DNA from: an uncultured Gemmatimonadales bacterium
Lineage (GTDB): Bacteria > Gemmatimonadota > Gemmatimonadetes > Longimicrobiales > RSA9
NCBI GenBank assembly: GCA_963741945.1
Contig: CAVUKA010000001.1
Coordinates: 832,001 to 896,000 of the forward strand
Reading direction: 5' to 3'
Length of the DNA stretch: 64,000 bases
Part shown: positions 11,914 through 27,295 of the stretch, in pieces
Layout: each line of letters starts with the position of its first letter
Numbering within the stretch: the first letter of the stretch is position 1
The notes under the pieces: generated by a model
Told to the model about the DNA's origin: nothing
The model's input: the letters and a program-made list of their open reading frames with translations, nothing else
Databases searched by the model: none
Program-made: the position numbers and the translations under genes

Positions 11914-12027
11914 GTCAGGTCCGGGGTTCGCGTGTAGAGGCTGGCGGAGATTGTGGCTCGCCAGGGGGCGGAGTCAACGGTTTCGTACTCCCGGCACCCC
12001 TCGGAAGAGTGGCCCGCCGCCGGCGGA

Positions 12028-12069
12028 GCTCGGCCGACCGCCCGTTCCGCTCGGCCGACCGCCCGTTCC
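12028..12069. repeat. 21-bp direct tandem duplication
   Basis: GCTCGGCCGACCGCCCGTTCC x2 in the intergenic region. Confidence 0.85.
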
Positions 12070-12206
12070 ACACGCGCGACGACCCGGCCCCCGGGAGATC
12101 GGGCCGGGGCACGTCCCGCCCAACGCGCGATACCATCCAGCTCAGGAATGCAACCTGCTGCCCTTGTCGAGCACGAGCCCGACTACGCCACCACACCCCG
12201 GATCCC

Positions 12207-13909: not shown

Positions 13910-14083
13910 CTATGTCTTCAGTCTTGCTGAAACCTCCAGCAGCTCCCGGATCCGCAGCAGCTCCGCGTGCATTCCCTTGACCGAGCTGACCAGCAGCCAC
14001 GCCATCCAGAGCAGGAATCCCCAGAACAGGAGCCCCACTACCAGGGTCAGAGCGAACCAGACGCTTTGAAAACCACCCATCAT
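13910..14083 (-). CDS. Small single-TM hypothetical protein (57 aa)
   Basis: MMGGFQSVWFALTLVVGLLFWGFLLWMAWLLV...; GGAGG upstream; ATGA overlap with the upstream ORF. Confidence 0.6.
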   Translation of the reverse strand: MMGGFQSVWFALTLVVGLLFWGFLLWMAWLLVSSVKGMHAELLRIRELLEVSARLKT

Positions 14084-14247
14084 TCCTCCTGATTCCGGCG
14101 GACAAGGGAGTAGTACGCCCAGTGCTGCACCACAGCCGAGAGGATCAACCCGATGACCACAACGGAATCCCATTCCGTCCGGAACCCCGCGACGATCCAC
14201 AGGATCAGATTGACTTCGATCGCCAAAAACAACCGCCGGTGATTCAC
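14080..14247 (-). CDS. Small two-TM hypothetical protein (55 aa), absent from the ORF track
   Basis: CAGGAGGctccGTG start; MNHRRLFLAIEVNLILWIVAGFRTEWDSVVVIGLILSAVVQHWAYYSLVRRNQEE*; stop overlaps next ATG. Confidence 0.55.
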   Translation of the reverse strand: MNHRRLFLAIEVNLILWIVAGFRTEWDSVVVIGLILSAVVQHWAYYSLVRRNQEE

Positions 14248-14358
14248 GGAGCCTCCTGTGACTGTTCGGATGCCTTCACTTCATGACGTTTCAACGGCTT
14301 GCGACCACGAGCGCCGATCGCCTCAAGCGCTTGGCCGCCGCCAGAAGCGGATTTGAGA

Positions 14359-14458
14359 CGACGTTTCCAGGTTGGCGACCCGCCACGCCGGGACCTTCAG
14401 CGCGAGACCACCTTCGAACCTGCACTTCCGTCACCAGCTCCAACACGGCCGCGGCGGG
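14359..14458. repeat. Degenerate attC-like repeat (left arm and central stem only)
   Basis: cgACGTTTCCAGGTTGGCGACCCGCCACGCC...CGCGGCGGG matches intact copies; TAAC mutated, right arm missing. A shorter remnant lies at 14284-14306. Confidence 0.75.
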
Positions 14459-14762
14459 CCTTTCGACCGCCCCGACTATCACCTTGACTCTGTGGTCGGC
14501 AATGGCAGCTGCCCCATCATCGACGCGAGTGTCTCGGCAACGGCCGCGGGGCTCCTCCTTGCCAGCGGTAGTTCAGCAACCCTGCCCCATTCTGGAGGGT
14601 TCCGAACGGCCAGAACCCACTCTGCATCCCGGGTTCAGCCCCTTTGATACAATGGAGGGGGAAGCCCCTGTTTGTTCTCCGACGTGCGTCGCCTTGTTTC
14701 CCTGATCACTGCCAGCGCTCCCCTCACCCTCTCCGCCAACGAGGGGGCCGCATGCATGGACC

Positions 14763-15362
14763 CTACGTTCCCCCGCAATTCCGCTGGACCTTGACAACCT
14801 CCGCCACCCGCGCCCCCAATTTCCGACCTTTCGCCATGAAGATTGACTCGATCGACGCGGCCACGGCCGTGTCCCCGAACGGGGGCTCGACGGTGACGGC
14901 GGATGCACCGAATGCCTCCGTCCAGGTCGGCCCGCCAACGACGAGCATGTTATAGATCAGCATCGCCCGGAGGATGGCGAGTTGGACGGTCTCTTCGCCC
15001 GCAGAGATTCCTCCCGCCGTGACAAACGCCGCCCCAACCTTGTCCCGCATCTCGCCGTTGAACGGAAGCGATCCCAGAAACTCCACAATCGGGGCAGCGA
15101 TGTTGGCCGCGTGGACGGGGCTGCCGACGATCAGAGCGTCAGCCCATAGCACGTCGACCCGCGAGGCGCTATCAACGGATAACAGCCGTACATCGGCCCC
15201 CGCGATACCGCGGGCTCCGGCTGCGACGGCTTCGGCCATTCGTTCCGTGTGCCCCGTCTCGCTGTGGTAGACGACCAGGATGTGCTGACACGCGGCCGCT
15301 TCCGGCAACGCAGAAAGCAGAATACCCATAACCCATAGCCTGCGTGCTGCCCGCCAAGTCAT
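14763..15362 (-). CDS. Flavodoxin/WrbA-like NAD(P)H oxidoreductase with signal-like N-terminus
   Basis: ILVVYHSETGHTERMAEAVA, DALIVGSPV, KVGAAFVTAGGISAGEE. Confidence 0.85.
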   Translation of the reverse strand: MTWRAARRLWVMGILLSALPEAAACQHILVVYHSETGHTERMAEAVAAGARGIAGADVRLLSVDSASRVDVLWADALIVGSPVHAANIAAPIVEFLGSLPFNGEMRDKVGAAFVTAGGISAGEETVQLAILRAMLIYNMLVVGGPTWTEAFGASAVTVEPPFGDTAVAASIESIFMAKGRKLGARVAEVVKVQRNCGGT

Positions 15363-15584
15363 AGGGTCCTCCCCGGTTTGACGGAATCCCACGTGTGCCT
15401 CCAACCCCGGCACCCTTCTGACGGGGCCGCCCGCGCCTGCGGCGCTCCGAACCTCGACCTCACCCTCCGACGGGAGTGTCCATTTTCAAACCGTTGCTGC
15501 TGTCCAGCTTACAACCGATGGTGACACCGTCGCCTATCCTCGCCAGCACCTCTCCCGCCCACGGAAATATTGTCCGCTCGTTCT

Positions 15585-16082
15585 CTACCCTGCTATTCGC
15601 CACCGGGGCAACCACCGCTTCACACGGGCTCGATAGGCCTCGTATTCGCCGCCAAACGTCCGCTCCAGCGTCGGCTCCTCATAGGCGCGGACGAACACAT
15701 GGGCAACCCCAAGGAACAGCAGCGCATACGCTGCCAGGGCGACCGACCTGTAGACCAGCGCTGCCCCGAAGAGAGCCACTACCGCACCCAGGTACATGGG
15801 ATTGCGCACCCACCGATACGGTCCCGACACCACCAGTTGACGAGGAGAATCAAAGGGCGCAGGCGTCCCCCGCCCTACGAACGTAAACGCCAGCACGCAC
15901 CACACGGCAACCACCGCTCCTGCAATCAAGATCATGATCCCCACTGATTCGGCTATGCCTATGGCATCCGGCGGCGTGATCCCCGCCCAGCTCAGCACTC
16001 GAGCCGGAAGAAAGACCAAGAACAGAGCCACAAACAGCGATCCCCAGGTCAGAGTCCGGATCACGACGAAGATCGCATCCAT
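15585..16082 (-). CDS. Isoprenylcysteine carboxyl/phospholipid methyltransferase family membrane protein
   Basis: GRGTPAPFDSPRQLVVSGPYRWVRNPMY, EEPTLERTFGGEYEAY...RWLPR. Confidence 0.88.
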   Translation of the reverse strand: MDAIFVVIRTLTWGSLFVALFLVFLPARVLSWAGITPPDAIGIAESVGIMILIAGAVVAVWCVLAFTFVGRGTPAPFDSPRQLVVSGPYRWVRNPMYLGAVVALFGAALVYRSVALAAYALLFLGVAHVFVRAYEEPTLERTFGGEYEAYRARVKRWLPRWRIAG

Positions 16083-16185
16083 GCTCTCCCCTCTCTCTTC
16101 TCAGCGCCGATCGAATCCACCGCCTCTCCTCCTCGCCTGGCCCACCACCGCATCAAAGCGACCGCAGGCGCAGGATTATTTCGGC

Positions 16186-16229
16186 TAACATTCCCAGGTT
16201 GGCGACCCGCCGCGCCCAAGCATCCAGCG
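16186..16229. repeat. Truncated attC-like repeat (left arm) abutting IS110 remnant
   Basis: TAACATTCCCAGGTTGGCGACCCGCCGCGCC, followed within a few bases by the transposase ATG. Confidence 0.85.
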
Positions 16230-16236
16230 GCGCACC

Positions 16237-17025
16237 ATGCTGCACACGGGGATCGATCTGCATAAGCGCACCTGCGTTCTGGCCACGGTGGACGCCGACG
16301 GCGAAGTCGTGGCCGAAGCGGAGCTCCGAACCCGTCGGGCGGCCATCGCCCGCTACTTCGCGCAGCTCCCGCCGCACCGAGCCACAGTCGAAGCCACCAG
16401 CAGCTGGTACTGGATCCGGGACCTGCTGGAGGCCCACATGATCTCCGCTGAGCTCCGACCGCTCCGCGACGTGATGCGGACCCGGCTCCGCCTGATCCAG
16501 AAAGAGGTCGGGACTCGAAACAGCATTCACCGGCTCCCCGAGAAGCACAACGTTCGCAGTGTCGCGGACCTGCCGCCCATGGCCCAGCTCCAGGCCGCCT
16601 GCCACCGCGAGCAGAGGGAGCTTCTCCGGGAGCACGTCCGCCGACTCGAGAAGAGCCTCCACCCGCACCTGGTGCCTGACCCCGATGTCCAGCGGCTGCT
16701 TGCGATCCCCGGGATCGGCAAGGTCGGCGCCTGGAGGCAAGGACCGGCACCGGCACTCCAGGGACGGCAACAAATACCTGAAGATCGTCTTCTCGAACGC
16801 CGCGGTCCGCGCGATCCAGTACAACCCCGAGATCCGGAGCTGGTACGAACGGAAGGCGCGGAAAAAGAACCGGGCTGTGGCCGGGCTCTCGTCGCGAAGG
16901 AACTCGCTCGTATCGTCTACCATGTCCTCTCGAAGCGGGAGGACTTCAACCATCGCTTCAAAGGCATCCCGCTCCAGCGGCGGAAAAAGCAGGAGTGGCC
17001 ACGTCGGTCAAGCCCGGGCAGCTAA
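16237..17025 (+). pseudogene. IS110-family transposase, internally deleted and frameshifted
   Basis: GIDLHK, VEATSSWYW, LLAIPGIG; C-terminal part (GNKYLK...AAVRA...WYERK) in another frame, then VAKELARIVYHVL; much shorter than full-length IS110 transposases. Confidence 0.88.
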
Positions 17026-17311
17026 CTGGATCGGCTTTCGCCGAGTACCGCCCCGTTTGATTGGGAAGACCGACGTCGAGCCGCCGGACGTATCTGGGAC
17101 CGCTCCGCAGAGCGACCGCTGAAATGAGCAGCGGTGAGCCCGAAATGGTGTTTGGACGCCACTCCACGTCCGATTCGATACCCACTCCGGCCCGGCCAGA
17201 CCTGCCGTCGCTCGCGGAATCGAGAAGCGTCGCACGATCGAAAAGCGAATCAGAATCTCTGATTCCGCAGAGGATCATCGTGCTCCTTGACGAAGGACTT
17301 GTTAATGGTGT
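17026..17311 (+). ncRNA. IS110/IS1111-type 3' non-coding end, candidate bridge/seek RNA
   Basis: ~285-bp non-coding tract after the transposase, with hairpins (ACCGCT...AGCGGT), an internal AATGGTGT identical to the element end, and a terminal TTGAC. Confidence 0.5.
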
Positions 17312-17363
17312 CAGGCGGTGTCCGCAAATCCAGGCCTTTCGCTCCGCAAACCGCCTCTCGCTC

Positions 17364-17393
17364 TTGAACTGCCGATCCCCTCCTGGGTATCAT
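17364..17393 (+). promoter_or_regulatory. Putative sigma70 promoter of inverted TA cassette
   Basis: TTGAAC-18bp-TATCAT followed by AGGAGG and ATG 17412. Confidence 0.5.
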
Positions 17394-17411
17394 CCGGCCA
17401 AGGAGGATCTC

Positions 17412-17630
17412 ATGACCGAACTACTCAAGAAGGCTTTCGACGAAGCGTCCAAACTCCCCAGCGAGCAGCAGGACGCCATCGCCGCTCTACTCCTGGAGGA
17501 GCTCGAGTCCGATCGAAACTGGGATCGGACCTTTGAAAACTCCCAGGACGACTTGGCGAAGCTCGCGAACGAAGCCCTCGCCGAAGACGCACGAGGTGAG
17601 ACGGAAAACCTCGACCCGTCCAAGCTTTGA
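17412..17630 (+). CDS. Putative type II antitoxin (72 aa)
   Basis: Acidic MTELLKKAFDEASKLPSEQQDAIA...WDRTF...LAKLANEAL; overlaps toxin start. Confidence 0.8.
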   Translation: MTELLKKAFDEASKLPSEQQDAIAALLLEELESDRNWDRTFENSQDDLAKLANEALAEDARGETENLDPSKL

Positions 17631-17896
17631 CCTCCCGCACCACTTCATCTTTTCGGAAGGCCTATTCCTCACTTCCTACCGACGTCCAGGAGCGGGCTCG
17701 CGAGGCCTTCGACCTCTTCTCCGCCAATCCGGCTCATCCGAGCCTGCAGTTCAAGCAGGTTCACGCGACCGAGCCGATCTTCTCAGCCCGCATATCGCTC
17801 CACTACAGAGCCTTGGCCCGCCGCGCCGACGATGACTGGATCTGGTTCTGGATCGGCTCACACGCCGACTATGACCAACTCTTGAAGCGCCTGTAG
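17627..17896 (+). CDS. RelE/ParE-superfamily toxin
   Basis: F..AY..LP..VQ..A...F..NP.HPSL.FK...SARI...YRAL...WFWIGSHADYD pattern. Confidence 0.82.
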   Translation: MTSRTTSSFRKAYSSLPTDVQERAREAFDLFSANPAHPSLQFKQVHATEPIFSARISLHYRALARRADDDWIWFWIGSHADYDQLLKRL

Positions 17897-17915
17897 CTCT
17901 GAAGCGGATGCCGCA

Positions 17916-18062
17916 TAACGTTTCCAGGCTACCGACCCGGCCCACCATGAACTGCAGGGCCGCGGCGAGTTTCGAATCCACACGCGCCCACCGAACGGCG
18001 CAACATTGCGGGCCGGGTACTCCGCAGCGACCGAAGGGAGCGGAGGCGCTAGCCGTCTGTTA
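17916..18062. repeat. attC-like recombination site (147 bp)
   Basis: TAACGTTTCCAGGCTACCGACCCGGCCC...GGGCCGGG...GGCGCTAGCCGTCTGTTA. Confidence 0.88.
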
Positions 18063-18241
18063 TCCGCTGCGCCTCCATCAGCCGCCTCTCCGTCCGCGTG
18101 TTCGCGTGCCCGGCGAAGCAGTTCCGAGTGTCGAAAGAACTGCCGGACCCGAGGTGGCTCGCCTCGGCGGGGCCCGCCTGCTCGAGAACGTGATCAAAAT
18201 CAAATTGATTTCGCTGTCTCCGTCTTGGAGGCGCTTGCGGC
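18063..18241. other. ORF-less cassette (179 bp) with internal hairpins
   Basis: Bounded by two repeats, has its own terminal inverted repeat, no convincing start codon/ORF. Confidence 0.7.
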
Positions 18242-18386
18242 TAACGTCTCCAGGTTGGCGACCCGCCGCGCCGATACCTCTAGCACGCGATCACCTTCGA
18301 AACAGCGGCAGCCTCACCAGCTTCAACACGGTCGCGGCGGGTTCTCCGGAGCGGCCGCAGGCCGCGCAGGCGCCAACCGTTTGTTA
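18242..18386. repeat. attC-like recombination site (145 bp)
   Basis: TAACGTCTCCAGGTTGGCGACCCGCCGCG...CGCGGCGGGTTCTCCGGAGCGGCCGCAGGCCGCGCAGGCGCCAACCGTTTGTTA. Confidence 0.9.
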
Positions 18387-18418
18387 ACCGCCGTGTTCTG
18401 CCCACAGCCTGGCGGACG

Positions 18419-18715
18419 TCACCTCCGGGCCTGCCAACGCTTCGGATCGCGGCGGGAATGGAAAACGGAGAGTACCACGATCTCTTCCGCGCTCACTCTG
18501 AAGAGAATGGCATATGGGAATCGCCGAACAACGGCCCTCCGGACATCCCGATACAGAATGGGAAATCGGAGAGGATTCCGCTGGATCGCTGAGAAAGCCG
18601 CATCGATGACGCGGACGAATTCCGCTCCCAAGCCCAAGGAACGCTCCGAATACCACGCTGCGGCTTCCTCGAGTTCGGCGTCGGCCGCAGGGCGAACAAC
18701 GAAGCGGCGGCTCAC
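18419..18715 (-). CDS. RelE/ParE family toxin
   Basis: PAADAELEEAAAWY....GLGAEF, RRAVVRRFPYAILF, VFHSRRDP. Confidence 0.9.
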   Translation of the reverse strand: MSRRFVVRPAADAELEEAAAWYSERSLGLGAEFVRVIDAAFSAIQRNPLRFPILYRDVRRAVVRRFPYAILFRVSAEEIVVLSVFHSRRDPKRWQARR

Positions 18716-18936
18716 CCGTACTTCTTGTACAACCGCTCCCGGACTTCCTCCCAGGGAATAGCAGAATCCGGGTCCGCTTCATGTTCTGCCAGCCTACGGT
18801 CCAGTTCCGCCTTCTGGGCCTCAGTTAATGGATAGGCGTCCGCGTCCGTAGCGATGCTGTCCCACAGGTCCTCCACCAACTGAATCCGCTCAGCGACCGA
18901 CAGCTTGAGCAGTTCCTCGATTGGTACACTCGACAT
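18712..18936 (-). CDS. Putative addiction module antitoxin (TIGR02574-like)
   Basis: LSVAERIQLVEDLWDSI...LTEAQKAELDRRL...IPWEEV; overlaps toxin start. Confidence 0.9.
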   Translation of the reverse strand: MSSVPIEELLKLSVAERIQLVEDLWDSIATDADAYPLTEAQKAELDRRLAEHEADPDSAIPWEEVRERLYKKYG

Positions 18937-19005
18937 CCGCAAGCTCCTTCCCTGAAGTCCCTTGCTCCTAATCTGCTACAGAAACGCCGAGTGGAACATG
19001 GGGGT

Positions 19006-19150
19006 TAACGTTTCCAGGTTGGCGACCCGCCGCGCCACAGCCTCCAGCGCTCGAACGCCTTCGAAACAACAACAATCTCACCAGCTTCATCACGGCTGCG
19101 GCGGGTTCTCCGGAGCTCGCGCAGCGAGCGGAGGCGCCAACCGTTTGTTA
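19006..19150. repeat. attC-like recombination site (145 bp)
   Basis: TAACGTTTCCAGGTTGGCGACCCGCCGCG...GCGGCGGG...GGCGCCAACCGTTTGTTA. Confidence 0.9.
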
Positions 19151-19700
19151 TCCGAAGCCCCACGGCGATGACCCCTCTTCAAGGCGCCCCGACTAGGCGC
19201 ATGAAAGGACGGAAAGCCGATTGCACCAGACGCCAGTAATACCCAAGGTCATCGGGCGATATCGACCAAGCGATCGTAACGAGTACTCCGATGGCGGTAT
19301 GGACCCAGGTAAACTTGCCTTGGCGCCTGGCTGTTTCTGCAAGGTAGTCTAACCTCCCACTGATGAACTTCTGTTGCTCCTCGCCTAACGAGTAACTTTC
19401 AAACAGTTTGGCCTCAAGTTCTTCAATTGAGTTGCGGATTTCGTCAGCTTCCTCAGCAGAAATCGGAGTGTCCTCAATCTCCTCTCTCGGCGAGAGCGTG
19501 AAGGATTCTTGGTATCTGGCCAGCTCCGTCCAGAGATCGCGGCTTTCCAATTCAAGCTTGAGGCGGTCGGCCCAATTCCAGCACAACTGCTTCTGCCCCT
19601 CCCAAGTTCCATTGTACACTTCTTCGATCCGCTTCTTCTTGTGGGTCCTCTAAACTATGTCGCGGTTTCTCTCTAAACTTTGTCGCGGCAAGGGCGTGAG

Positions 19701-20480
19701 CTAAGCGGCTTCAGAGTCAGGGGCCTCCTCCTGCTTATGGTGGCGGGTGCGGTAGGAGCGGCCGCGGAGCACGAAGTGGGTACCGCGCTCCAGGAGCCGA
19801 TCCAGAATCGCTTCCGCGAGATCGGCATCATGCAGCACCTGACCGAGGGCGGCCAGGGGTTTGTTGGTGGTCACGATCATGGGCCGGTGCTTCAGGTAGC
19901 GATCGTTGACCACCCGGTAGAGTACGTTGGCGGCATCGGCAGCGTAGCTCTGATAACCGAGTTCGTCGATCACCAGCACGTGCGGATGGACGTAGGGCTC
20001 GAGGGCTTCTTCCAGCCGTCCCTCCGCGGCTGCCTTCGAGAGGGCGCCGATCAGCTCGTCTGCGGTGGTGAAGCGGGCGTCGAAGCCGTTCTGGATGGCC
20101 CGATAGGCGATGGCCACGCCCATATGCGTCTTTCCCCGACCGGGCGGCCCCGTGAAGATCGCGGACCGCCCCTCGCTCACGAGCTCCGGCCCCAGCAGCG
20201 TGCCGAGCATCTGAAGGCGGACGCTGGTCTGGAAGGTGAAGTCGAATTCCTCGATGGTGCGGAGGAAGGGAAACTTCGCTTTGCGGACGTATCGGGTGAT
20301 CCGAGTCTGCGCCCGGTGGGCGATCTCCTCGGCGCAGAGTAGCTCGAGAAACGTGCGGTAGCTCATGCCCTCGTCCTCGGCCCGGATCACCAGGTCCGGA
20401 TAGAGGCGTCGGACCGTGGGCAGGTGAAGACGGTGGAGCATCGCATCCAGATCGTCCAGCGGCACGGGAGTGCTGATCAT
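19701..20480 (-). CDS. istB: IS21 helper ATPase IstB
   Basis: AKFPFLRTIEEFDF, Walker A GPPGRGKTH, LVIDELGY, EAILDRLL. Confidence 0.95.
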   Translation of the reverse strand: MISTPVPLDDLDAMLHRLHLPTVRRLYPDLVIRAEDEGMSYRTFLELLCAEEIAHRAQTRITRYVRKAKFPFLRTIEEFDFTFQTSVRLQMLGTLLGPELVSEGRSAIFTGPPGRGKTHMGVAIAYRAIQNGFDARFTTADELIGALSKAAAEGRLEEALEPYVHPHVLVIDELGYQSYAADAANVLYRVVNDRYLKHRPMIVTTNKPLAALGQVLHDADLAEAILDRLLERGTHFVLRGRSYRTRHHKQEEAPDSEAA

Positions 20481-21883
20481 GAGGCCGCCTCCTTCGCCAC
20501 GAGTCCCATCACGTACTCCGCCCCGATCAGGCGCTGAAAGAGCGCTCGCTGGAGCAGCCGGAGGAAACGCTCCTGGCCCACCTCCTCCAGCAGGGCGAAG
20601 AGCCGCTCGACGTCTCCTTTCCAGGTGTAAGGACGAGAGTGGATGAGTTCGGTCAGGTAGCCCTCACCGATGGGCCCCAGCTCCAGGATCCGCTCCCGCA
20701 TGAAGTAGAGGCGCTTCCGGGCGCCGGCCACGGCCGCCAGCTGCTCCGCCCTCTGGCCGGGCAGGTAGCTGGTAGTCCCCACTTTGGGAAAGCGTGGGTG
20801 GGTGGCCTCGAAGCGGGCACCGGTCGTGACGATCCGGACCCGGTCCGGGTACAGGTGCAGCGTGGCCGGAATCCCGCACGCCCCCGCCGGCATAGCGTAG
20901 CGGACTCCCTGGAAATCCACGAGGGCCGTGGGACCCACATGCACGGCGTAGCGCAGCCCGTATTCTGTGGGCGCAATGGCCAGCGGCTTCATGCGGGCCT
21001 GTTCGGTCACGAGCCGGAGCTTTGGGATCTCCTTCGTGGCGCGGGACGGCCGCTCCTCATTCACCCCCAGCAGCCACTCAAGGAGCTGACGGGGGAGGTC
21101 GTGATCGAGATCGGCGAAGCGGCGGGCTCGGAAGAAGCTCCGCTTCACCCAGCCCACAAGATTCTCCACCGAACCCTTCTGCTCGGGACTCCGCACCGCG
21201 CACAGCTCGATGGTGAAGCCGTAGTCGATGGCCACCTGCGCCAGGGTCGAGTTCCAGATCGGCCGGTCGCCGTCCCGGCCCACCACCACGGTCTTCGGAT
21301 TGTCGAAAACTACCCGGAGCGGCACGCCCCCCGAGTGCTCGAAGGCCGCGAGCAGCGCGCGCACCAGCGATTCGATCCGCTCGTCCGGCACGATCACCAC
21401 CCACACCCACCGCGAGTACTTTAGCCGGAAGGCCGCGAAGTGGACCCGCTTCTTCCGCCCGTCCAGCAGCCGGACGTCGGCCTGCCCGAAGTCGAACTGG
21501 GCGAACTCCCCCGCTACCCCCTCGAACCGCACCATCAGCTCCGCCGGCAGCTTCCCCTTCTCCAGCCGAAACACCCGATAGAAGGTGCTCTCGGCGAGCT
21601 GAACTCCTTCGTCACGAAGCAAGCGAAGGTACTCCAGCGGTGGAGCTTCCGGATCCTCCGCGATCAGATCCACCAGCCGCTGCTTCACCGCTGACCTCAC
21701 TGGCGGTCGGCCCACACCACGGCGCCGCCGCTCCGCCACGTCATCCCCGTCCTCTACCAGCGGCTCTTTGGCGATCCGCTGGATCGTCCGCACGGTGACG
21801 CCGAACTGCTCCGCAATCTGCTTCTTCTCTTCCCCCGCCTTCAGCAGAGCATGGACTGCATGTCGATCAATCATCCTGAGCAT
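20477..21883 (-). CDS. istA: IS21 transposase IstA
   Basis: N-terminal HTH, RFE...GEFAQFDFG, GGVP....FDNPKT, KGSVENLVG. Confidence 0.95.
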   Translation of the reverse strand: MLRMIDRHAVHALLKAGEEKKQIAEQFGVTVRTIQRIAKEPLVEDGDDVAERRRRGVGRPPVRSAVKQRLVDLIAEDPEAPPLEYLRLLRDEGVQLAESTFYRVFRLEKGKLPAELMVRFEGVAGEFAQFDFGQADVRLLDGRKKRVHFAAFRLKYSRWVWVVIVPDERIESLVRALLAAFEHSGGVPLRVVFDNPKTVVVGRDGDRPIWNSTLAQVAIDYGFTIELCAVRSPEQKGSVENLVGWVKRSFFRARRFADLDHDLPRQLLEWLLGVNEERPSRATKEIPKLRLVTEQARMKPLAIAPTEYGLRYAVHVGPTALVDFQGVRYAMPAGACGIPATLHLYPDRVRIVTTGARFEATHPRFPKVGTTSYLPGQRAEQLAAVAGARKRLYFMRERILELGPIGEGYLTELIHSRPYTWKGDVERLFALLEEVGQERFLRLLQRALFQRLIGAEYVMGLVAKEAAS

Positions 21884-22254
21884 CCTCCCCGCCCTCCGAT
21901 TCTCAGAGCCCTGAGCCCTCGGAACGGCGGCATTCTACGCTGTGGATGCCCTCAACTGCGACATAGTTTGGAGAGAATCAGCGACAGAATTTCGGGAACT
22001 CACACTTCTCGCCGGGGCAGAATCGAGCCCAATCTTGGCCCCGGAGGTAGTCAAACTGGAAGTAGAAGTCCGGGTCCGTTTTCAGCACCAAGCGGGACAC
22101 CCTCTGTTCTGAACCGTGGAGACTGGCGACCTCCATCCACTCGAGTCGGGCCGGGTCGAGCCCCGCCCCTTCGACTACCTCGAAAATCTCGTTCTTTCGA
22201 CTAGTTAGAAGAACTTGATTCATCGCACTCCAACGCGTGTGCAGGGGTTTCGGA

Positions 22255-22400
22255 TAACGTTTCCAGGTTGGCGACCCGCCGCGCCACAATCTCAAGCGCG
22301 CCACCGCCTCCCAAACTCCGACCTCGTCACTAGCTCCAGTGCGGCCGGCGGCGGGTTCTCCGGAGCGGCCGAAGGCCGCGTAGGCGCCAACCGTTTGTTA
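22255..22400. repeat. attC-like recombination site (146 bp)
   Basis: TAACGTTTCCAGGTTGGCGACCCGCCGCG...GCGGCCGAAGGCCGCGTAGGCGCCAACCGTTTGTTA. Confidence 0.9.
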
Positions 22401-22426
22401 TCTGACGTGCGCGCCCTCGAGGGTGA

Positions 22427-22678
22427 CTATGGCGTGGGCACCGAGGAGACATCTTTGTAGAGCGCGTCTGGAGCGAGATCGATATCACCTGGCCAAGTGA
22501 CGGTACCACTCTCCGGATCGACGCTCACCGAATTGAAGACGCTCTGATCCCGCCAAGCCGCGAACACGCCCTTGCCGACGAGTCCCGAAAGGTCCACCTC
22601 CCCTTCAGTGCCATCGGAGAACCGGATCCAAAGCCGGTAGTTCGGCCGCGTCTTCGCCTGCTCGATTCGATACAGCAT
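22427..22678 (-). CDS. DUF2442 family protein (putative TA component)
   Basis: YRLWIRFSDGTEGEVDL...GVF......F..V.VD...TVTWPGDIDLAPDALY. Confidence 0.85.
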   Translation of the reverse strand: MLYRIEQAKTRPNYRLWIRFSDGTEGEVDLSGLVGKGVFAAWRDQSVFNSVSVDPESGTVTWPGDIDLAPDALYKDVSSVPTP

Positions 22679-22686
22679 TTTCGCCC

Positions 22687-22947
22687 TCAGTTCAGAGGAT
22701 CGATCTTCCCGGGCGCCTCGTGCGCCTGCGCTCGCCTCCACGCCTCCGCCAACTCCCTCTGGTGCAAACTGGCCCATTCCATCACCAGACCCAAGGCTCT
22801 CGGCGGCAAACTCCCTTCCAACACCGACAGATCCTCAATCCTCACCAGAGCTTCCGCTCCGCCGTACCGCGCATGGAAATGCGGCGGCGCGTGGTCGCGG
22901 AAGTACATGTAGATCGAGATGCCGAAGAACTCCGAAACCTTTGGCAA
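22687..22947 (-). CDS. DUF4160 family protein (putative TA component)
   Basis: MPKVSEFFGISIYMYFRDHAPPHFHARY...LVMEWASLHQREL...W. Confidence 0.88.
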   Translation of the reverse strand: MPKVSEFFGISIYMYFRDHAPPHFHARYGGAEALVRIEDLSVLEGSLPPRALGLVMEWASLHQRELAEAWRRAQAHEAPGKIDPLN

Positions 22948-23015
22948 TACACCTCCGCCTCTAACGAGATCTCCGGCATCTTCGAAACTACCGCGAAGCC
23001 GAAGCGCATGTCAGA

Positions 23016-23164
23016 TAACGTTTCCAGGTGAGCGACCCCGCTACCACGACCTCACCTGGCGCCGCCTCCTTCGAAACTTCCCGACATCCTTTGAGCAGCG
23101 CCAGCACCTGTCCGCGGGGTACTCCGAAGCGACCGAAGGGAGCGAAGGCGCTCACCGTTTGTTA
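23016..23164. repeat. attC-like recombination site (149 bp)
   Basis: TAACGTTTCCAGGTGAGCGACCCCGC...GCGGGG...GGCGCTCACCGTTTGTTA (compensatory changes in the outer stem). Confidence 0.9.
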
Positions 23165-23574
23165 TCTGAAGCCCCGTTCCCACCCGTCGGATCAGCTCGG
23201 ACCTGCGGGGGCTCACTGGAAAGTGGCTGGTTCACCAGATCCCAAGCCACGTCAATAAACTCCACTTCGAACCAGCGGTTGAACGTCTTCCAGTCCCGTT
23301 TCTTCGGCCATAGCGCCGGATCTGTATACCAGCTGTCGAGAGCGATCTCGAACATCAGATCGAAGTTGTCCCGGATCCAGGCTTCCGAATCCGGCGTCAT
23401 GTCGAACTGCGGGATCAGGAACGCCTCCACGGCCTTCTCCGCGACTTCCTCACTCACCGGCGGTCCCGGTCCCGGGTCCGCCTCCCGCACCCAGTCGACG
23501 AATGGCTGCTTCGGCCGCAGCACGACGAGGCCACGATTCAGGAACCAGATCTCCCCACCGTCAGTTTCAGCCAT
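23152..23574 (-). CDS. Conserved hypothetical cassette protein; stop codon inside the repeat
   Basis: LNR..VVLRPKQPFVDWV...FEIALDSWYTDPALWP..R...TF..WF.VEF. Confidence 0.8.
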   Translation of the reverse strand: MAETDGGEIWFLNRGLVVLRPKQPFVDWVREADPGPGPPVSEEVAEKAVEAFLIPQFDMTPDSEAWIRDNFDLMFEIALDSWYTDPALWPKKRDWKTFNRWFEVEFIDVAWDLVNQPLSSEPPQVRADPTGGNGASDNKR

Positions 23575-23597
23575 CCGCTTTCCTGAGGGGTTTCAGA

Positions 23598-23741
23598 TAA
23601 CGTTCAATGGTTGGCGACCGCCGCGCCGAACCTCCAGCGCTCTTCGATCTCTGAATCCAAGCAGCCCTTCCAGCATCAGCACACGGGCCGCGGCGGTACT
23701 CCGGAGCGAGCAACGCGAGCGCAGGCGCCAACCTAGTGTTA
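23598..23741. repeat. attC-like recombination site (144 bp)
   Basis: TAACGTTCAATGGTTGGCGACCGCCGCG...CGCGGCGGT...GGCGCCAACCTAGTGTTA. Confidence 0.88.
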
Positions 23742-23780
23742 TACGCAGTGCCCGCGCTGGGCCCTGGCCCGACCGACTCC

Positions 23781-24392
23781 TCAGCGCTTCCGTTTGAGCG
23801 TGCCCCACGCCGATACGAGCATCAGGTCATGACCAGCCTGGGCGAGGCTGAACTCTTCGGGATCGAATCCGTCTCCGAGCCATTCGATCTTCTCCCGCAC
23901 CCACTCTTCGAGCTCACCGATTGGAGTCCCGAGTGCTGCTAGCATTTCGGTATAGGCGTGGGGTCCACCGCAATCCTCTGGAGGGCCCCGACGAGCCCCC
24001 GCGACGACCATGGGCAGCCAGTCGAGGTCCGGATTGCCCTCCGGCTCCTCGATTTCTACAACGTGCCGCCACTCATCTCCCCAGTCGTACACGTACTCCA
24101 GCCGATCACCAGGGCCGAGGCCCAACCGGTCGAGACGCGCCTTGGTCGAATCCAAGCCCTCGGCCTCGTCATCCGGTGCCTCGTAGTGTTCCTCACCGAC
24201 CTGGAAGCTGTAGAGATGGTAGTCGTACCAGTCGAACAACAACTGGATGATTCGATGCAATTCGTGCAGGGTCGTCCGTTTCGGGAGCAGTACACGCCGC
24301 CAGATCCGGGGCTCGATGTCCTCGAGATAGATCTGCACCTGAAAATGGTCGTGGTCTGTCTTCACACGATCCGCCCGACGTGGCTGAATCAA
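23781..24392 (-). CDS. Plasmid pRiA4b ORF-3 family protein (first cassette)
   Basis: PRIWRRV....TL.ELH..IQ..F.W.DYHLYSF, YVYDWGDEWRH, PPEDCGG; GGAGG before TTG start. Confidence 0.9.
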   Translation of the reverse strand: MIQPRRADRVKTDHDHFQVQIYLEDIEPRIWRRVLLPKRTTLHELHRIIQLLFDWYDYHLYSFQVGEEHYEAPDDEAEGLDSTKARLDRLGLGPGDRLEYVYDWGDEWRHVVEIEEPEGNPDLDWLPMVVAGARRGPPEDCGGPHAYTEMLAALGTPIGELEEWVREKIEWLGDGFDPEEFSLAQAGHDLMLVSAWGTLKRKR

Positions 24393-24428
24393 GCTCTTTC
24401 CTCCAGCAGAAGCATGTCAGGCCATTGC

Positions 24429-24448
24429 GTATAACTACTGCGTTATAC
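24429..24448. other. Putative attI-like primary recombination site
   Basis: GTATAAC-TACTGC-GTTATAC exactly where the first cassette's terminal inverted repeat ends. Confidence 0.7.
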
Positions 24449-24455
24449 TGCGTTC

Positions 24456-24471
24456 CCGAACTCGTGTTCGG
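24456..24471. promoter_or_regulatory. CGAAC-N4-GTTCG palindrome (LexA-box-like or recombinase accessory site)
   Basis: CCGAAC-TCGT-GTTCGG adjacent to the attI-like site. Confidence 0.4.
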
Positions 24472-24670
24472 TAGGATGTCGGCGGGCCGGATGTTTGCGC
24501 CGGTCGTTCGGGAAAGGTCCTTATCAGTTGTCGGAGCCACCCACCCCGGCCGCCTGACCCGAATCATCTCTATTTGGGGCCATTCTTGTTCAGAAGCAAT
24601 GACCTTGTACAGGGGCTCCGCACGGCCGTTTGCACGGGGCTGATTCGAGCGGCCGACGGCCGCTTCCCCC

Positions 24671-25750
24671 TCACGCTGCGTCCAGCGGGTTCACGATCCG
24701 GGTCAGGTCGCCGCGGCTGACGTGGGTATAGATCTGGGTGGTGCGGGGGCTCGTGTGGCCGAGGAGCTCCTGGATGTGGCGGAGGTTGACGCCGGCCTCC
24801 AGGAGGTGGGTGGCGAAGCTGTGGCGGAGGGTGTGCACGGTGGCGTGCTTGCGTACGCCGGACCGGGCCAGGGCGCGCTCGAAGATCTTCTGCACGGACC
24901 GCGTGGTCAGATGGCGGCCGGGCCGGCCCCCGGGGAAGATCCAGTCGTCGGCGTGGAGGCGGGCAACGACGGGCTCGAGGGCGGCGGCCGCGGCATCGGC
25001 CAGCAGCGTGTAGCGGTCCTTCCTCCCCTTCCCTGCGCGGACACGGACCAGCCCTCGTCCGGAATCCACGTCGCCGACCCTGAGGCGTACCACCTCGCTG
25101 ACGCGGAGGCCGGCGGAGTACGCCAGTATCAGGGCCAGACGGTGCGTCGGGTTGGCGGGGGCGTCGAGGATGCGGCGCACTTCGTCGCGGGAGAGGACGG
25201 CGGGGAGCTGGCGCTCCCGCTTCGGGCGGCGGATCGGGTCCAGCGCGAGCGGGCGGCCGACGAGCCGCGCCAGGAGCCGGATGGCGCTGATCGCCTGGTG
25301 CTGGTAGGAGGTCGACCGGTCGTCGGCCTCGAGCCGGAGCAGGTGAGCGCGGACGTGCTCCGTCGACAGCTCGGTCGCGGCCTTCGGGAAAGCTTCGAAG
25401 AACCGACGGACGTGGCCGACGTAGTTCGTCCGCGTACGGGGGCCGTAGCCCTGGAGCCGGAGCTCTTCCGAGAGGCGCTGGAGGAGCGCCGCCGCCGGAT
25501 CGGTGCCGTTCGCCCGGCGAAACGGGACGCGGACCAGGTGCATGAGACCGGGGTCGACGCGGAAGCTCGCGTCGGGCGCCCGGAGCAGCGCGTTCAGCGC
25601 CTCCTCGGTGCGCGGCAGCAGCCACGCCGATCGGCCGGGGTCCCAGTGCCGGCCTGGGATCGAGCGGACGTGCCCGACCAGCCCCGCGTCATAGGGGAAC
25701 CGGACTTCGATCCGCGTTTCCGCGTCCATGAGCCAAACAGAGGTCGCCAT
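24671..25750 (-). CDS. Tyrosine recombinase (SAM-like + catalytic domains) with extra N-terminal HARP-like domain; lacks IntI insertion
   Basis: YSAGLRVSE, GKGRKDR, HTLRHSFATHLLE, LLGH, TTQIYTHV; N-term IEVRFPYD...RSIPGRHWDPGRSAWLLP. Confidence 0.93.
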   Translation of the reverse strand: MATSVWLMDAETRIEVRFPYDAGLVGHVRSIPGRHWDPGRSAWLLPRTEEALNALLRAPDASFRVDPGLMHLVRVPFRRANGTDPAAALLQRLSEELRLQGYGPRTRTNYVGHVRRFFEAFPKAATELSTEHVRAHLLRLEADDRSTSYQHQAISAIRLLARLVGRPLALDPIRRPKRERQLPAVLSRDEVRRILDAPANPTHRLALILAYSAGLRVSEVVRLRVGDVDSGRGLVRVRAGKGRKDRYTLLADAAAAALEPVVARLHADDWIFPGGRPGRHLTTRSVQKIFERALARSGVRKHATVHTLRHSFATHLLEAGVNLRHIQELLGHTSPRTTQIYTHVSRGDLTRIVNPLDAA

Positions 25751-25864
25751 GACCGAGTCTGAACCGGCCACCGGGGCATGGGAATGGCCGGATCGGCCAT
25801 TCTGCTCTCGGCGGCCGCGGCTCGGCCCCTCCGTGCGCGGGCTCGGCTTGGTCGCCCGCCGTGC

Positions 25865-27295
25865 CTACATCCCGATCCAGATCCCGACCAGGATGGACAC
25901 GATCCCCAGGGCGACGAGCATGGCCCACATGCGGAGCGCGAAGGCGAGCCAGCGGTCGTAACGGACGCCGGCGGCGGCGATGACGGCCATGAGCGCGCCG
26001 TTGGTGGGGGTGATCATGTCGCACAGCCCGGCGCCGTACTGGTAGGCGAGGATGCCGACATCGCGGGAGAGGCCGAGGAGGTCGGCGAGGGGGGCGAGGA
26101 TCGGCATGGTGAGGACGGCCTGGCCGCTCACGCTGGGGACGGGGACGTGGATGGCGGTGTGGACGCCCACCATGCCGATGGCGGCGAGCGCGGGCGGGAG
26201 CCCCTGGATCGGCTGAAAGAGGCCGTGGACGATGGTGTCGATGACGTGGCCGTCGTCCAGCACGACGAAAATGGCGCGGGCGAAGCCGATGAGGATGGCG
26301 GCGAACGCCATGGCGCGGAATCCGTCGATGAACGCGTCCGCCGTCCCGCCCACGCCGAGCCGGCCCACCAGCCCGGCCACCACACCCAGGAGGAGGAAGA
26401 GCGCGGACATCTCGTTGAAGCCCCAGTCCAGCCGCATGACGCCGATCACGTACACGCCGAACGCCGCCACGGCCAGCGCCAGGATCAGGGCGTGGGCACC
26501 GGTCATCCGGATATCGGGCTGCGGAGCGACGCCGGGCGACGCCAGCTCCGGGGTGACGCCGGGCCGGGCCGGCTGCGGGGCCTGCAGCGGGGCGACGCCG
26601 GGCGGGGTCGGCTGCGGCGCGGTGCGGGTTCGCCGGGCGTAGCGGGCGGTGCCCCAGCTGTAGAGCGCGAGGGCCACCACTACGAAGGCGGTCCGGAACC
26701 CGGCGTGCTCGAGGAGCGGCACGCCGGCGATCTTCTGGGCGATCCCCACCTGGAACGGGTTGATGGGGCTGAACGCCGCGCCCACGGCGGCGGCGCCGAG
26801 GGAGATGGCCACGGCCACCACGGTGTCGAAGCCGAGGCGGTGGGTGAGGAGGAGGAGCACGGGCACCAGCGCGATGAACTCCTCCTGCATGTTCTCCAGC
26901 GCCCCGGCGGTGCCGAAGGCGAAGCACGCGATGGGGATGATGAGCAGCTCGTGGCGTCCCAGGACGCGGACCAGCCGGTCGAAGCCGCCGTGGAGCGCGC
27001 CCGTCCGGTCGATGACGGTGAACGCGCCGCCCACCAGGAAGACCAGGAAGATGACTTCGCCCGCGTCCTCCATCCCGCGCGGCAGGGCGACGATGGTCTC
27101 GAACGGCCCCACGGGGCTGGAGGCCACGCGGTGGTAGCTGCCGCTCACCACCACCTCGCGCCCCGTCGCCGGGTCGGGCTGCCGGTCGTACGCGCCGGCC
27201 GGCAGCACCCACGTGAGGACTGCGGCCAGCACGACGCCCGCGAAGAGCAGGACGAGGGGATTCGGGAATCGTTTCAGGGGGGTGTCTCCGGCCAC
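25865..27295 (-). CDS. YfcC/DcuC-like transporter
   Basis: LTWVLPAGAYDR, FSPINPFQVGIAQKIA, VPSVSGQAVLTMPILAPLAD, ITPTNG. Confidence 0.88.
   Translation of the reverse strand: MAGDTPLKRFPNPLVLLFAGVVLAAVLTWVLPAGAYDRQPDPATGREVVVSGSYHRVASSPVGPFETIVALPRGMEDAGEVIFLVFLVGGAFTVIDRTGALHGGFDRLVRVLGRHELLIIPIACFAFGTAGALENMQEEFIALVPVLLLLTHRLGFDTVVAVAISLGAAAVGAAFSPINPFQVGIAQKIAGVPLLEHAGFRTAFVVVALALYSWGTARYARRTRTAPQPTPPGVAPLQAPQPARPGVTPELASPGVAPQPDIRMTGAHALILALAVAAFGVYVIGVMRLDWGFNEMSALFLLLGVVAGLVGRLGVGGTADAFIDGFRAMAFAAILIGFARAIFVVLDDGHVIDTIVHGLFQPIQGLPPALAAIGMVGVHTAIHVPVPSVSGQAVLTMPILAPLADLLGLSRDVGILAYQYGAGLCDMITPTNGALMAVIAAAGVRYDRWLAFALRMWAMLVALGIVSILVGIWIGM

Follow-up and report, generated by a model that had tools for sequence, protein, structure and literature searches.

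The field defines integrons by the extra domain of their integrase, IntI, and the tools used to detect integrons require that domain. In IntI, the I2 helix recognises extrahelical bases and blocks second strand exchange (PMC4792948, PMC7790495), and deletion of the additional domain abolishes the activity of IntI1 (Messier and Roy 2001, as cited in PMC7790495). For IntI, for clusters of attC sites lacking an integrase (CALINs) and for the "inverted integron-integrase" group, we follow the definitions of Cury et al. 2016 (PMC4889954). Among simple tyrosine recombinases, Smyshlyaev et al. 2021 (PMC8138268) distinguish an "integron-like" subgroup whose insertion is "not fully conserved"; at the sequence level, relatives of IntI that lack the insertion are thus already known, and the excerpts of that paper used here do not link the subgroup to cassette arrays or folded sites. 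Archaeal IntIs carry the additional domain (Ghaly et al. 2022 preprint), and integrons are very rare in Bacteroidetes (Neron et al. 2022, PMC9024848). A full-text literature search turned up no report of attC-like arrays associated with an insertion-less recombinase; the supplementary tables of PMC4889954, PMC9024848 and PMC8138268, which this search did not cover, could list such cases. Here we describe a stretch of 64,000 nucleotides from the 4.09-Mb genome of an uncultured Gemmatimonadales bacterium (the whole stretch is called the window, and the genome G000; coordinates without a prefix are window positions). In this window, a tyrosine recombinase without the IntI insertion lies at the end of an array of gene cassettes that are separated by folded sites. 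We estimate the probability at about 0.72 that the locus is a sedentary chromosomal cassette platform, integron-like, and operated by a recombinase from another branch of the lineage that includes IntI.

The array lies between an MltF-like and a YfcC/DcuC-family gene, and its G+C content (58-65%) is lower than that of its flanks (70-75%). To find its sites here and elsewhere, we used a covariance model, R1, built from the six intact repeats of the window. The elements of the proposed recombination system, all on the minus strand, are as follows.

24671 to 25771, minus strand: tyrosine recombinase, 366 aa in the longest open reading frame (ORF), with a probable start at 25750; at the right end of the array
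24450 to 24670, minus strand: non-coding spacer from the recombinase stop to the attI-like core; the best-conserved stretch of the locus between congeners
24430 to 24449, minus strand: attI-like core, 222-241 bp past the recombinase stop codon
23595 to 23744, minus strand: site s1, R1 score 126.5 bits
23013 to 23167, minus strand: site s2, R1 score 140.1 bits
22252 to 22403, minus strand: site s3, R1 score 160 bits
19003 to 19153, minus strand: site s4, R1 score 165.6 bits
18239 to 18389, minus strand: site s5, R1 score 162 bits
17913 to 18065, minus strand: site s6, R1 score 137.7 bits; its L-box variant GGCTA.CG / CG.TAGCC is a compensatory change
16183 to 16236, minus strand: 3' half-site (L' and R' side), abutting an IS110-family remnant
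14356 to 14484, minus strand: partial last site of the array, R1 score 72.9 bits

An initial annotation of the window had proposed a recombinase pointing into an array, a core site about 220 bp past its stop, six intact repeats, and broken copies at 14359 and 16186. All of these elements are present where it placed them and in the right numbers. The recombinase gene (24671-25771, minus) indeed points into the array, which extends to its left, downstream of the gene and co-oriented with it; the core site is located at 24430-24449; and the broken copies correspond to the partial site at 14356-14484 (72.9 bits) and the 3' half-site at 16183-16236.

The six intact TAAC...GTTA repeats (17916-18062, 18242-18386, 19006-19150, 22255-22400, 23016-23164 and 23598-23741; 144-149 nt) are folded, strand-specific structures under covariation. 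They score 126-165 bits with R1 on the minus strand and less than 10 bits on the plus strand. As read on the minus strand, the TAAC of the R box pairs with GTTA and is followed by unpaired spacers of 3 nt on the 5' side and 5 nt on the 3' side, with one bulged base. Inside the spacers lies a covarying L-box helix of 8-9 bp with consensus GGTTGGCG/CGCCAACC. The 5' arm additionally bears a conserved side hairpin, a second covarying stem of 8 bp closes a variable loop, and the stems together form a three-way junction.

In a MAFFT alignment of the six copies, 10 of the 30 pairs have changed on both sides, a number reached by none of 500 column shuffles. We also aligned a larger set of 74 R1 matches (73 distinct) from ten genomes to R1. 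Compensatory changes are present in 25 of 30 pairs among the 73 distinct sites (0/500 shuffles reach 25), and 91% of alignment cells pair, versus 30-39% in controls with slid partners. The TAAC and GTTA are near-invariant (68-72 of 73 sites), and the four inner R-box pairs are nearly fixed. The three outer R-box pairs form in only 45-66% of sites, which is expected if the bases past G|TTA are part of the next cassette. Single-sequence folding of the repeats yields modest z-scores (-0.03 to -3.25), so the structural argument rests on covariation instead. The design is that of attC: AAC...GTT cores, an L pair, unpaired spacers, and structure conserved over sequence. The difference in geometry from attC that was initially claimed therefore holds for the spacer lengths (3 and 5 nt plus a bulge), the size and the side hairpin, while the logic of R box, spacer and L box is kept.

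The recombinase is IntI's closest relative by profile and by fold, yet it is not a bona fide IntI. It consists of an N-terminal beta-rich domain (approximately residues 8-80), a SAM-like core-binding domain and a catalytic domain. The top NCBIfam model is the integron integrase TIGR02249, which matches in two stretches with 208.4 bits, below its cut-off of 265, and the score with PRK15417 is 137.6 versus a cut-off of 435. All Xer profiles also remain below their cut-offs (archaeal XerA 199.6 versus 220, XerC 180 versus 335, XerD 169 versus 330). The best solved structure by sequence is VchIntIA (2a3v), in which residues 176-240 stand opposite residues 264-286 of the query; the IntI insertion (about 41-42 residues, in the I2 helix region) is absent. 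The same gap appears in comparison with an IntI encoded by G000 itself, with 38% identity over the catalytic half. We measured the insertion segment in 142 non-redundant related ORFs (two ORFs truncated there were left unscored). It comprises 38 residues in the window enzyme versus 78-82 (79 in nearly all) in every IntI examined, 36-49 in the insertion-less ORFs, and 37-42 in nearly all members of the family that has the N-terminal domain. With an AlphaFold model of the enzyme (mean pLDDT, the predicted local accuracy, 85.7), Foldseek ranks 2a3v first (E 3e-14), followed by archaeal Xer structures. The initial annotation was thus right that the enzyme lacks the IntI insertion (38 versus 78-82 residues, with the gap opposite 2a3v 176-240), that it is no bona fide IntI (a split match, 208.4 bits against 265, and the insertion missing) and that IntI models would miss it, as it falls below the TIGR02249 cut-off.

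The family to which the enzyme belongs is large, with 7157 proteins at E<=1e-20 among 8000 scored candidates and a typical length of 350-400 aa. Its members are annotated only generically, as tyrosine recombinase, XerD or "tyrosine recombinase/integron integrase", and several close ones are named from metagenome-assembled genomes (MAGs) of Longimicrobiales or Gemmatimonadota. The catalytic residues R, K, H, R, H and Y are invariant in a 30-member family alignment, and among the family members examined these six residues and the N-terminal domain are conserved.

We inferred trees from the core of 130 related ORFs with the insertion columns removed (FastTree) and from an 82-taxon set (IQ-TREE). 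IntI forms one clade in both trees, with a FastTree support of 99 and an approximate likelihood ratio test (SH-aLRT) value of 99 in IQ-TREE. The window enzyme lies outside this clade, in a neighbouring group of insertion-less enzymes with the N-terminal domain. Rooting on Xer-like genes of G000 placed the root at conflicting positions in FastTree and IQ-TREE. Because the root is unreliable, we claim only the monophyly of IntI and the exclusion of the window enzyme from it; a sister group and an ancestral grade are not separable. The "sister class" of the initial annotation consequently fits the trees in that the enzyme is outside the IntI clade (support 99), and an ancestral grade is allowed equally. 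With this reservation, sequence features suggest that the locus is a sister, integron-like platform with predicted recombination activity. Two IntIs of the order have both the insertion and the N-terminal domain, namely those of G148 (L162/L171, G148:C178) and G078 (L166, G078:C302; flagged as unpublished), and their existence stands on G148 alone even without G078. The IntI gene of G148 is followed by canonical ...GTTAGAG-type sites, not by R1 sites.

The N-terminal domain (approximately residues 8-80) has the order beta-beta-alpha-beta-beta-alpha-beta-alpha and, when folded alone with 25 homologues, reaches a pLDDT of 91.3. It has no match in Pfam. Its best Foldseek matches are the HARP domain of SMARCAL1 (E 0.03, probability 0.96) and the N-terminal domain of archaeal XPB. 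A second aligner, independent of Foldseek, aligns it to the N-domain of T4 UvsW with Z 7.0 and a root-mean-square deviation of 1.8 A over 60 residues, to XPB with Z 5.6 and to HARP with Z 3.9. In the ESM Atlas, the N-terminal part matches unnamed clusters only, at 0.83-0.84, which is below the trust level. The N-domains of UvsW, XPB and HARP are regarded as one kind of structure-specific recognition domain, for fork or branched DNA. With scores that are moderate, we treat the resemblance to these branched-DNA domains as a lead; the domain may supply the structure-specific recognition that the I2 insertion provides in IntI.

To survey the order, we searched 151 genomes for the enzyme (E<=1e-60) and for IntI (E<=1e-40), and 150 genomes for R1 sites (E<=1e-5 with strict filters); the tallies include four genomes flagged as unpublished (G078, G030, G002 and G095). 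The insertion-less enzyme has a patchy distribution (31/151 genomes). IntI is found in 39/151, in 28 of these over the cut-off, and R1 sites in 24/150. Among the 24 site-positive genomes, 18 have the enzyme. For 18 of the 24, likewise, no IntI match was found, among them the single-contig genomes G081 and G106. Six genomes have both sites and IntI, and in none of them do the two adjoin: four have them on different contigs, and in G000 and in a congeneric genome, G096, they share a contig but are separated by more than 500 kb. In one family of the order (f3), 16 of 50 genomes have IntI and none of the 50 has R1 sites. These data support the conclusion that, within the order, the occurrence of the sites is tied to the insertion-less enzyme rather than to IntI.

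Linkage was analyzed in the flanks of 18 homologues, 12 of which have at least 2.8 kb of sequence downstream. The contigs of the other six end within about 2 kb of the gene, and repeat arrays tend to cause such breaks. In 10 of the 12 relatives, R1 sites lie downstream of the recombinase and on its strand, starting from a few hundred bp to about 1.5 kb past the stop. An eleventh relative, in G069 (L136:1740-7350, G069:C12), has at least five copies of a different TAAC...GTTA family of about 150 nt downstream of its recombinase. Because R1 missed these copies, site families appear to diverge between genera. The expected link between homologous recombinases and such repeats is thereby borne out, with an array downstream in 11 of 12 relatives.

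On the minus strand, the attI-like core has AACGCAGTA twice and then G|TTATAC, and from the sequence we place the probable crossover between 24435 and 24434. Comparison with G096 is informative here. The recombinase of G096 has 89% protein identity to the window enzyme, and the two share their chromosomal context; at the nucleotide level, identity between G000 and G096 is 92.0% for the recombinase gene, 84.4% for the yfcC-like gene and 88.2% for the gene after it. Their homology ends within the GTTA of ...AACGCAGTAG|TTA (window 24430-24435), just ahead of which G000 has a 10-bp tandem duplication. At the equivalent position, an xxG|TTA(T/A/C/G) junction is present in 7 of 9 other relatives and in a second array of G000, array B (see below); none is evident in loci L128 and L133, and L130 is ambiguous.

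The spacer from the recombinase stop to the core (226 bp) is 98.7% identical between G000 and G096. This high conservation suggests that the spacer may hold dense regulatory or accessory binding sites, or an array promoter. A palindrome, CGAAC-N4-GTTCG, lies at 24457-24470, 8 bp from the core. Only six exact copies occur in the 4.09 Mb of G000, and two of them are just past the attI-like end of array B (C1:358845-358858 and C1:358974-358987). We considered the palindrome as a candidate LexA box, but the regions upstream of lexA and recA contain TTCGG direct repeats and no exact copy of it.

Past the core, the arrays of G000 and G096 have in common only two cassettes and IS21 copies. One of the shared cassettes, with a ParE-like gene, is 99% identical and is near the array start in G096 versus position 7 in G000. 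The identity begins at the GGAAACG|TTATGC of differing upstream sites and ends, in G096, where the cassette's own site starts; in G000, an IS110-family remnant has taken the place of that site, and the half-site 16183-16236 is what is left of it. These breakpoints at G|TTA are those that would be expected of integron-type cassettes. Cassette content at the mltF-yfcC locus differs between the congeners: G096 keeps the flanks (84-92%) and differs in the cassettes.

Among public sequencing data, parts of the locus are present in four DNA runs, all from one study and all as fragmentary metagenome contigs; no RNA run is listed. Joints listed from these runs (e.g., 18394>22254 and 22277>23695) were considered as excision products and rejected as untrustworthy, since their sides are only 21-31 nt. 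In run X4, the site segments have a summed depth of 23-131 and the cassettes are near 0, which may reflect sites of other organisms with the same conserved boxes.

No IntI-profile gene was found inside the window by profile search, and G000 has two genes elsewhere that exceed the IntI cut-off (328 and 361 bits) and are nearly identical to each other. The intact one is on contig 6 (L002:1495-2445, minus strand; locus G000:C6:1-20000, L011), and encodes 316 aa with an insertion of the ALxRKxP...WQYLFPA type. The other is at 1.40 Mb of C1 (G000:C1:1385000-1412694; L009, L010), where an IS21-family istB gene stands in place of its N-terminus. Each of the two genes points into its array (the "inverted" arrangement), and both loci carry canonical-looking attC sites of 60-127 bp that belong to a different sequence family. 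At these two loci, R1 has only two matches, at chance level (10-11 bits, E 0.6-1.0). Genome-wide, R1 finds 14 strong matches, seven in the window array and seven in array B, and two weak ones elsewhere. G000 also has a separate Xer-like gene.

Array B (C1:350580-358114; L012:6580-14114) consists of seven R1 sites of the same family with no recombinase alongside. It has a degenerate attI-like end (at about L012 14790), and the first gene after this end encodes a protein like an outer-membrane beta-barrel. The array has two cassettes in common with the window array, e.g., one with 93.5% identity over 922 bp.

Two further observations concern the canonical intI loci. A motif of the form ...GTATAACGC...TATACTGCGCC... 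lies about 150-200 bp past each intI stop and resembles the region of the attI-like core in the window. In addition, tandem 9-bp repeats occur near these loci (L010:10466-10734 and L011:10888-11024), with about 21 copies of a GGGCGTCGC type and about 11 of a CCCGTGGAG type.

We propose that the system would work as follows. One strand of a site would fold and probably serve as a single-stranded substrate, and the recombinase, as the presumed catalyst, would cut and exchange at G|TT. Exchange between two sites would excise a cassette as a circle, and exchange between a circle and attI would insert the cassette next to the enzyme gene. The N-terminal domain, akin to the recognition domains of UvsW, XPB and SMARCAL1, might take over the structure recognition of the I2 insertion.

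It is important to emphasize that several points weigh against this interpretation. No recombination product was observed, and the public runs gave no trustworthy excision joint. Because IntI1 is inactive without its additional domain, an insertion-less enzyme needs another solution, which is only hypothesised, and all fold matches of the N-terminal domain are below the level of Z 8 at which the aligner's scores become comfortable. The 73-site alignment was fitted to R1 and hence leans towards the model, although the six-copy MAFFT alignment gives the same picture. Array B has no recombinase beside it, and G000 encodes IntI (one intact, one truncated by IS21), so action on the sites in trans is possible. 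As for the survey, its counts include related, non-independent genomes, and many are drafts. Six of the 24 site-positive genomes have no enzyme match; they have one or two site matches each, mostly weak or at the ends of draft contigs, but one of them, G115, is a single contig with one weak match. Conversely, 13 of the 31 enzyme-positive genomes have no R1 match, at least one of which (G069) has a diverged site family, and the twelfth relative in the linkage set, G094, has no array next to its recombinase gene.

An alternative that accepts the platform as real is that the enzyme acts on duplex or cruciform DNA by an Xer-like two-strand exchange, rather than on a folded strand with replicative resolution. 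It would suit an enzyme without the I2 helix whose XerA score is close to its IntI score, and IntI itself retains an ancestral duplex activity (PMC4792948). Yet compensatory changes in 25 of 30 pairs, in arms whose sequences vary, argue for selection on intramolecular pairing, not for two sequence-specific half-sites. The strong strand asymmetry (126-165 versus <10 bits), the unequal spacers, the bulge, the one-sided hairpin and the resemblance of the N-terminal domain to branched-DNA binders also speak against it, and we regard it as unlikely. It might instead be supposed that the array is a CALIN serviced in trans by a canonical IntI elsewhere in G000, the adjacent recombinase being unrelated. 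The two genes over the IntI cut-off (328 and 361 bits), the TAAC/GTTA cores and G|TTA crossover common to these sites and attC, and the solo array B of the same sites all fit this idea, and CALINs alongside integrons are common (PMC4889954). We nevertheless judge it quite improbable: 18 of the 24 site-positive genomes lack IntI at E<=1e-40, including the single-contig G081 and G106; the family richest in IntI (16/50) has R1 sites in 0/50; and in 11 of 12 relatives the enzyme keeps its place and direction with respect to the array. The suggestion, raised at the outset, of a separate IntI servicing these sites is half borne out, in that two true intI genes exist; they stand with another attC family, at whose loci R1 reaches only the chance level of 10-11 bits.

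The array could also be a relic with immobile cassettes, in which case the recombinase would be a degenerate IntI that has lost its insertion, or an Xer-type enzyme that serves some other purpose, such as dimer resolution or island integration. Damaged sites (the partial last site and the half-site), three insertion sequences or remnants in or beside cassettes, and the relative that has the gene without an adjacent array are all compatible with decay. Against this stand the thousands of family members (7157), with catalytic residues and N-terminal domain conserved among those examined; the position of the enzyme outside, and not nested in, the IntI clade; a 99%-identical cassette at different array positions between flanks that are 84-92% identical; and a distribution (31/151) that is patchy, unlike that of a housekeeping Xer; and the presence of a separate Xer-like gene in G000. 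We consider this explanation very improbable. Lastly, repeats that are intergenic, G+C-rich and structured, with modest folding z-scores, might be elements like repetitive extragenic palindromes (REP) or miniature inverted-repeat transposable elements (MITE), or terminators, and be unlinked to site-specific recombination. This view is scarcely credible, given that all 14 strong matches in 4.09 Mb are in two arrays (with two weak ones elsewhere), that the first site always comes after the recombinase gene and the attI-like core, and that cassette homology breaks at the G|TTA of the sites. We therefore retain the integron-like platform with its own recombinase as the preferred interpretation.

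As read on the minus strand, the array comprises eight cassettes, each ended by a site of about 150 nt, and the cassette genes are mostly on the minus strand. The cassettes, insertion sequences and flanking genes are listed below in order from the recombinase side.

25865 to 27295, minus strand: YfcC/DcuC-family transporter, chromosomal flank; syntenic with the recombinase in G096
23745 to 24434, minus strand: cassette 1, PRiA4_ORF3-family gene at 23781-24392 (PF07929, E 4e-50)
23168 to 23594, minus strand: cassette 2, 140-aa hypothetical protein, ORF 23152-23574 ending inside site s2; no Pfam family
22404 to 23012, minus strand: cassette 3, gene pair of DUF4160 (22687-22947) and DUF2442 (22427-22777), by Pfam
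19154 to 22251, minus strand: cassette 4, 146-aa ORF at 19179-19619, enlarged by an IS21-family insertion
about 19639 to 22015: IS21-family insertion in cassette 4, with istA at 20477-21883 and istB at 19701-20480
18390 to 19002, minus strand: cassette 5, Unstab_antitox antitoxin-like gene at 18712-18942 and an adjacent ORF
18066 to 18238, minus strand: ORF-less 173-bp unit between two full sites; no ORF passes the codon-position GC filter
17312 to 17912, plus strand: cassette 7, ParE-like toxin gene (17627-17896, plus) and a small ORF upstream of it
16229 to 17311, plus strand: IS110-family remnant that replaces most of the site of cassette 7
14485 to 16182, minus strand: distal unit, PEMT-family methyltransferase gene (15585-16082) and flavodoxin/FMN-reductase-like gene (14763-15413)
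12009 to 13718, plus strand: MltF-like protein (SBP_bac_3 and SLT domains), chromosomal flank

The partner ORF in cassette 5 (18384-18782, or 18419-18715 from a later start) has no Pfam family, and this cassette also occurs in array B and in G096, about 93% identical. An R1 scan found no site between the PEMT-family and flavodoxin-like genes of the distal unit. The Pfam content and strands agree with the initial description of mostly co-oriented units of one or two genes (toxin-antitoxin-like, PRiA4_ORF3, hypotheticals). The IS110-family identity follows from an intact homologue (L012:6795-7658) that matches PF01548 and PF02371. An IS110-family element lies at a recombination site in both arrays (window 16183-17311 and L012:6787-7679). 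IS1111-attC elements target attC sites, and the IS110 placement here parallels them. Neither a tRNA scan nor Rfam at gathering thresholds found a match in the window. A short imperfect G+C-rich repeat is present inside the yfcC-like gene, at 26518-26628.

Beyond the order, R1 found nothing in 18 relative loci from other genome collections (mostly other phyla, with three Gemmatimonadota MAG loci). Two Flavobacteriaceae loci (L019:12050-21000 and L038:12500-15900) have three to four copies of a CAAC...GTTG repeat of about 130 nt downstream of a recombinase. These recombinases are of the family with the N-terminal domain and are 33-34% identical to the window enzyme; the repeats have an R box, spacers of 3 nt and 5-6 nt and a covarying L box, in the design of the window sites, and an internal hairpin. 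A simple repeat search of four other loci with long flanks (L018, L030, L032 and L027) revealed no clear array. In an archaeal MAG contig (L013:8502-11071), two recombinase genes with the N-terminal domain are in tandem, and the contig ends right after the second.

A broader hypothesis, to which we give somewhat less than an even chance, is that integron-type capture via folded sites can operate without the IntI insertion. A wider family of recombinases with UvsW/XPB/HARP-like domains would then run arrays in Gemmatimonadota and, by two loci, in Bacteroidota; classical IntI would be one derived branch, and the machinery of cassettes and attC would predate the I2 helix. If this is true, integron-type capture is wider than surveys show, including in phyla counted as nearly integron-free, and many "CALINs", as well as arrays that have gone unrecognised, may be equipped with a recombinase of their own. 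Views on how single-strand recombination arose in IntI would need revision, and a second, differently built structure-specific recombinase would become available for mechanistic and synthetic-biology work. Two systems with separate site families coexist in G000, which makes this genome a natural test bed for the specificity of both.

Among described systems, the locus is most readily compared to sedentary chromosomal integrons. As in these, a recombinase stands beside an insertion site with a GTT crossover, followed by a co-oriented array of one- and two-gene cassettes in which toxin-antitoxin pairs and unknown genes abound; the array keeps a fixed place in the chromosome, its content varies, and it is lower in G+C than the host. 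A further similarity is that insertion sequences, of the IS110 family and others, lie within or next to the sites. The sites, like those of integrons, are imperfect palindromes: their cores are AAC/GTT, the central spacer is unpaired and the L box covaries. In that the recombinase gene points into the array, the locus resembles the "inverted integron-integrase" group (e.g., of Treponema), as do the canonical intI loci of G000. Unlike integrons, the enzyme lacks the IntI insertion of about 41 residues, fails the IntI cut-off and has an extra N-terminal domain of about 80 residues, and the sites are uniformly about 150 nt, with 3/5-nt spacers and a conserved side hairpin, in a family apart from the attC sites of G000. 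With CALINs, the locus shares the lack of a nearby IntI-profile gene, and both R1 arrays of G000 would be classed as CALINs if the attC model detects their sites; the window array differs from a CALIN in that a recombinase of its own lies at a conserved position beside it, together with an attI-like site. Finally, the enzyme is similar to Xer recombinases (XerC/D and archaeal XerA) in its simple two-domain core without the IntI insertion, with 199.6 bits for XerA and 4a8e and 5hxy as close structures. It is distinguished from them by scores below all Xer cut-offs, a patchy distribution (31/151), the extra N-terminal domain, and an association with multi-site cassette arrays rather than a single dif site.

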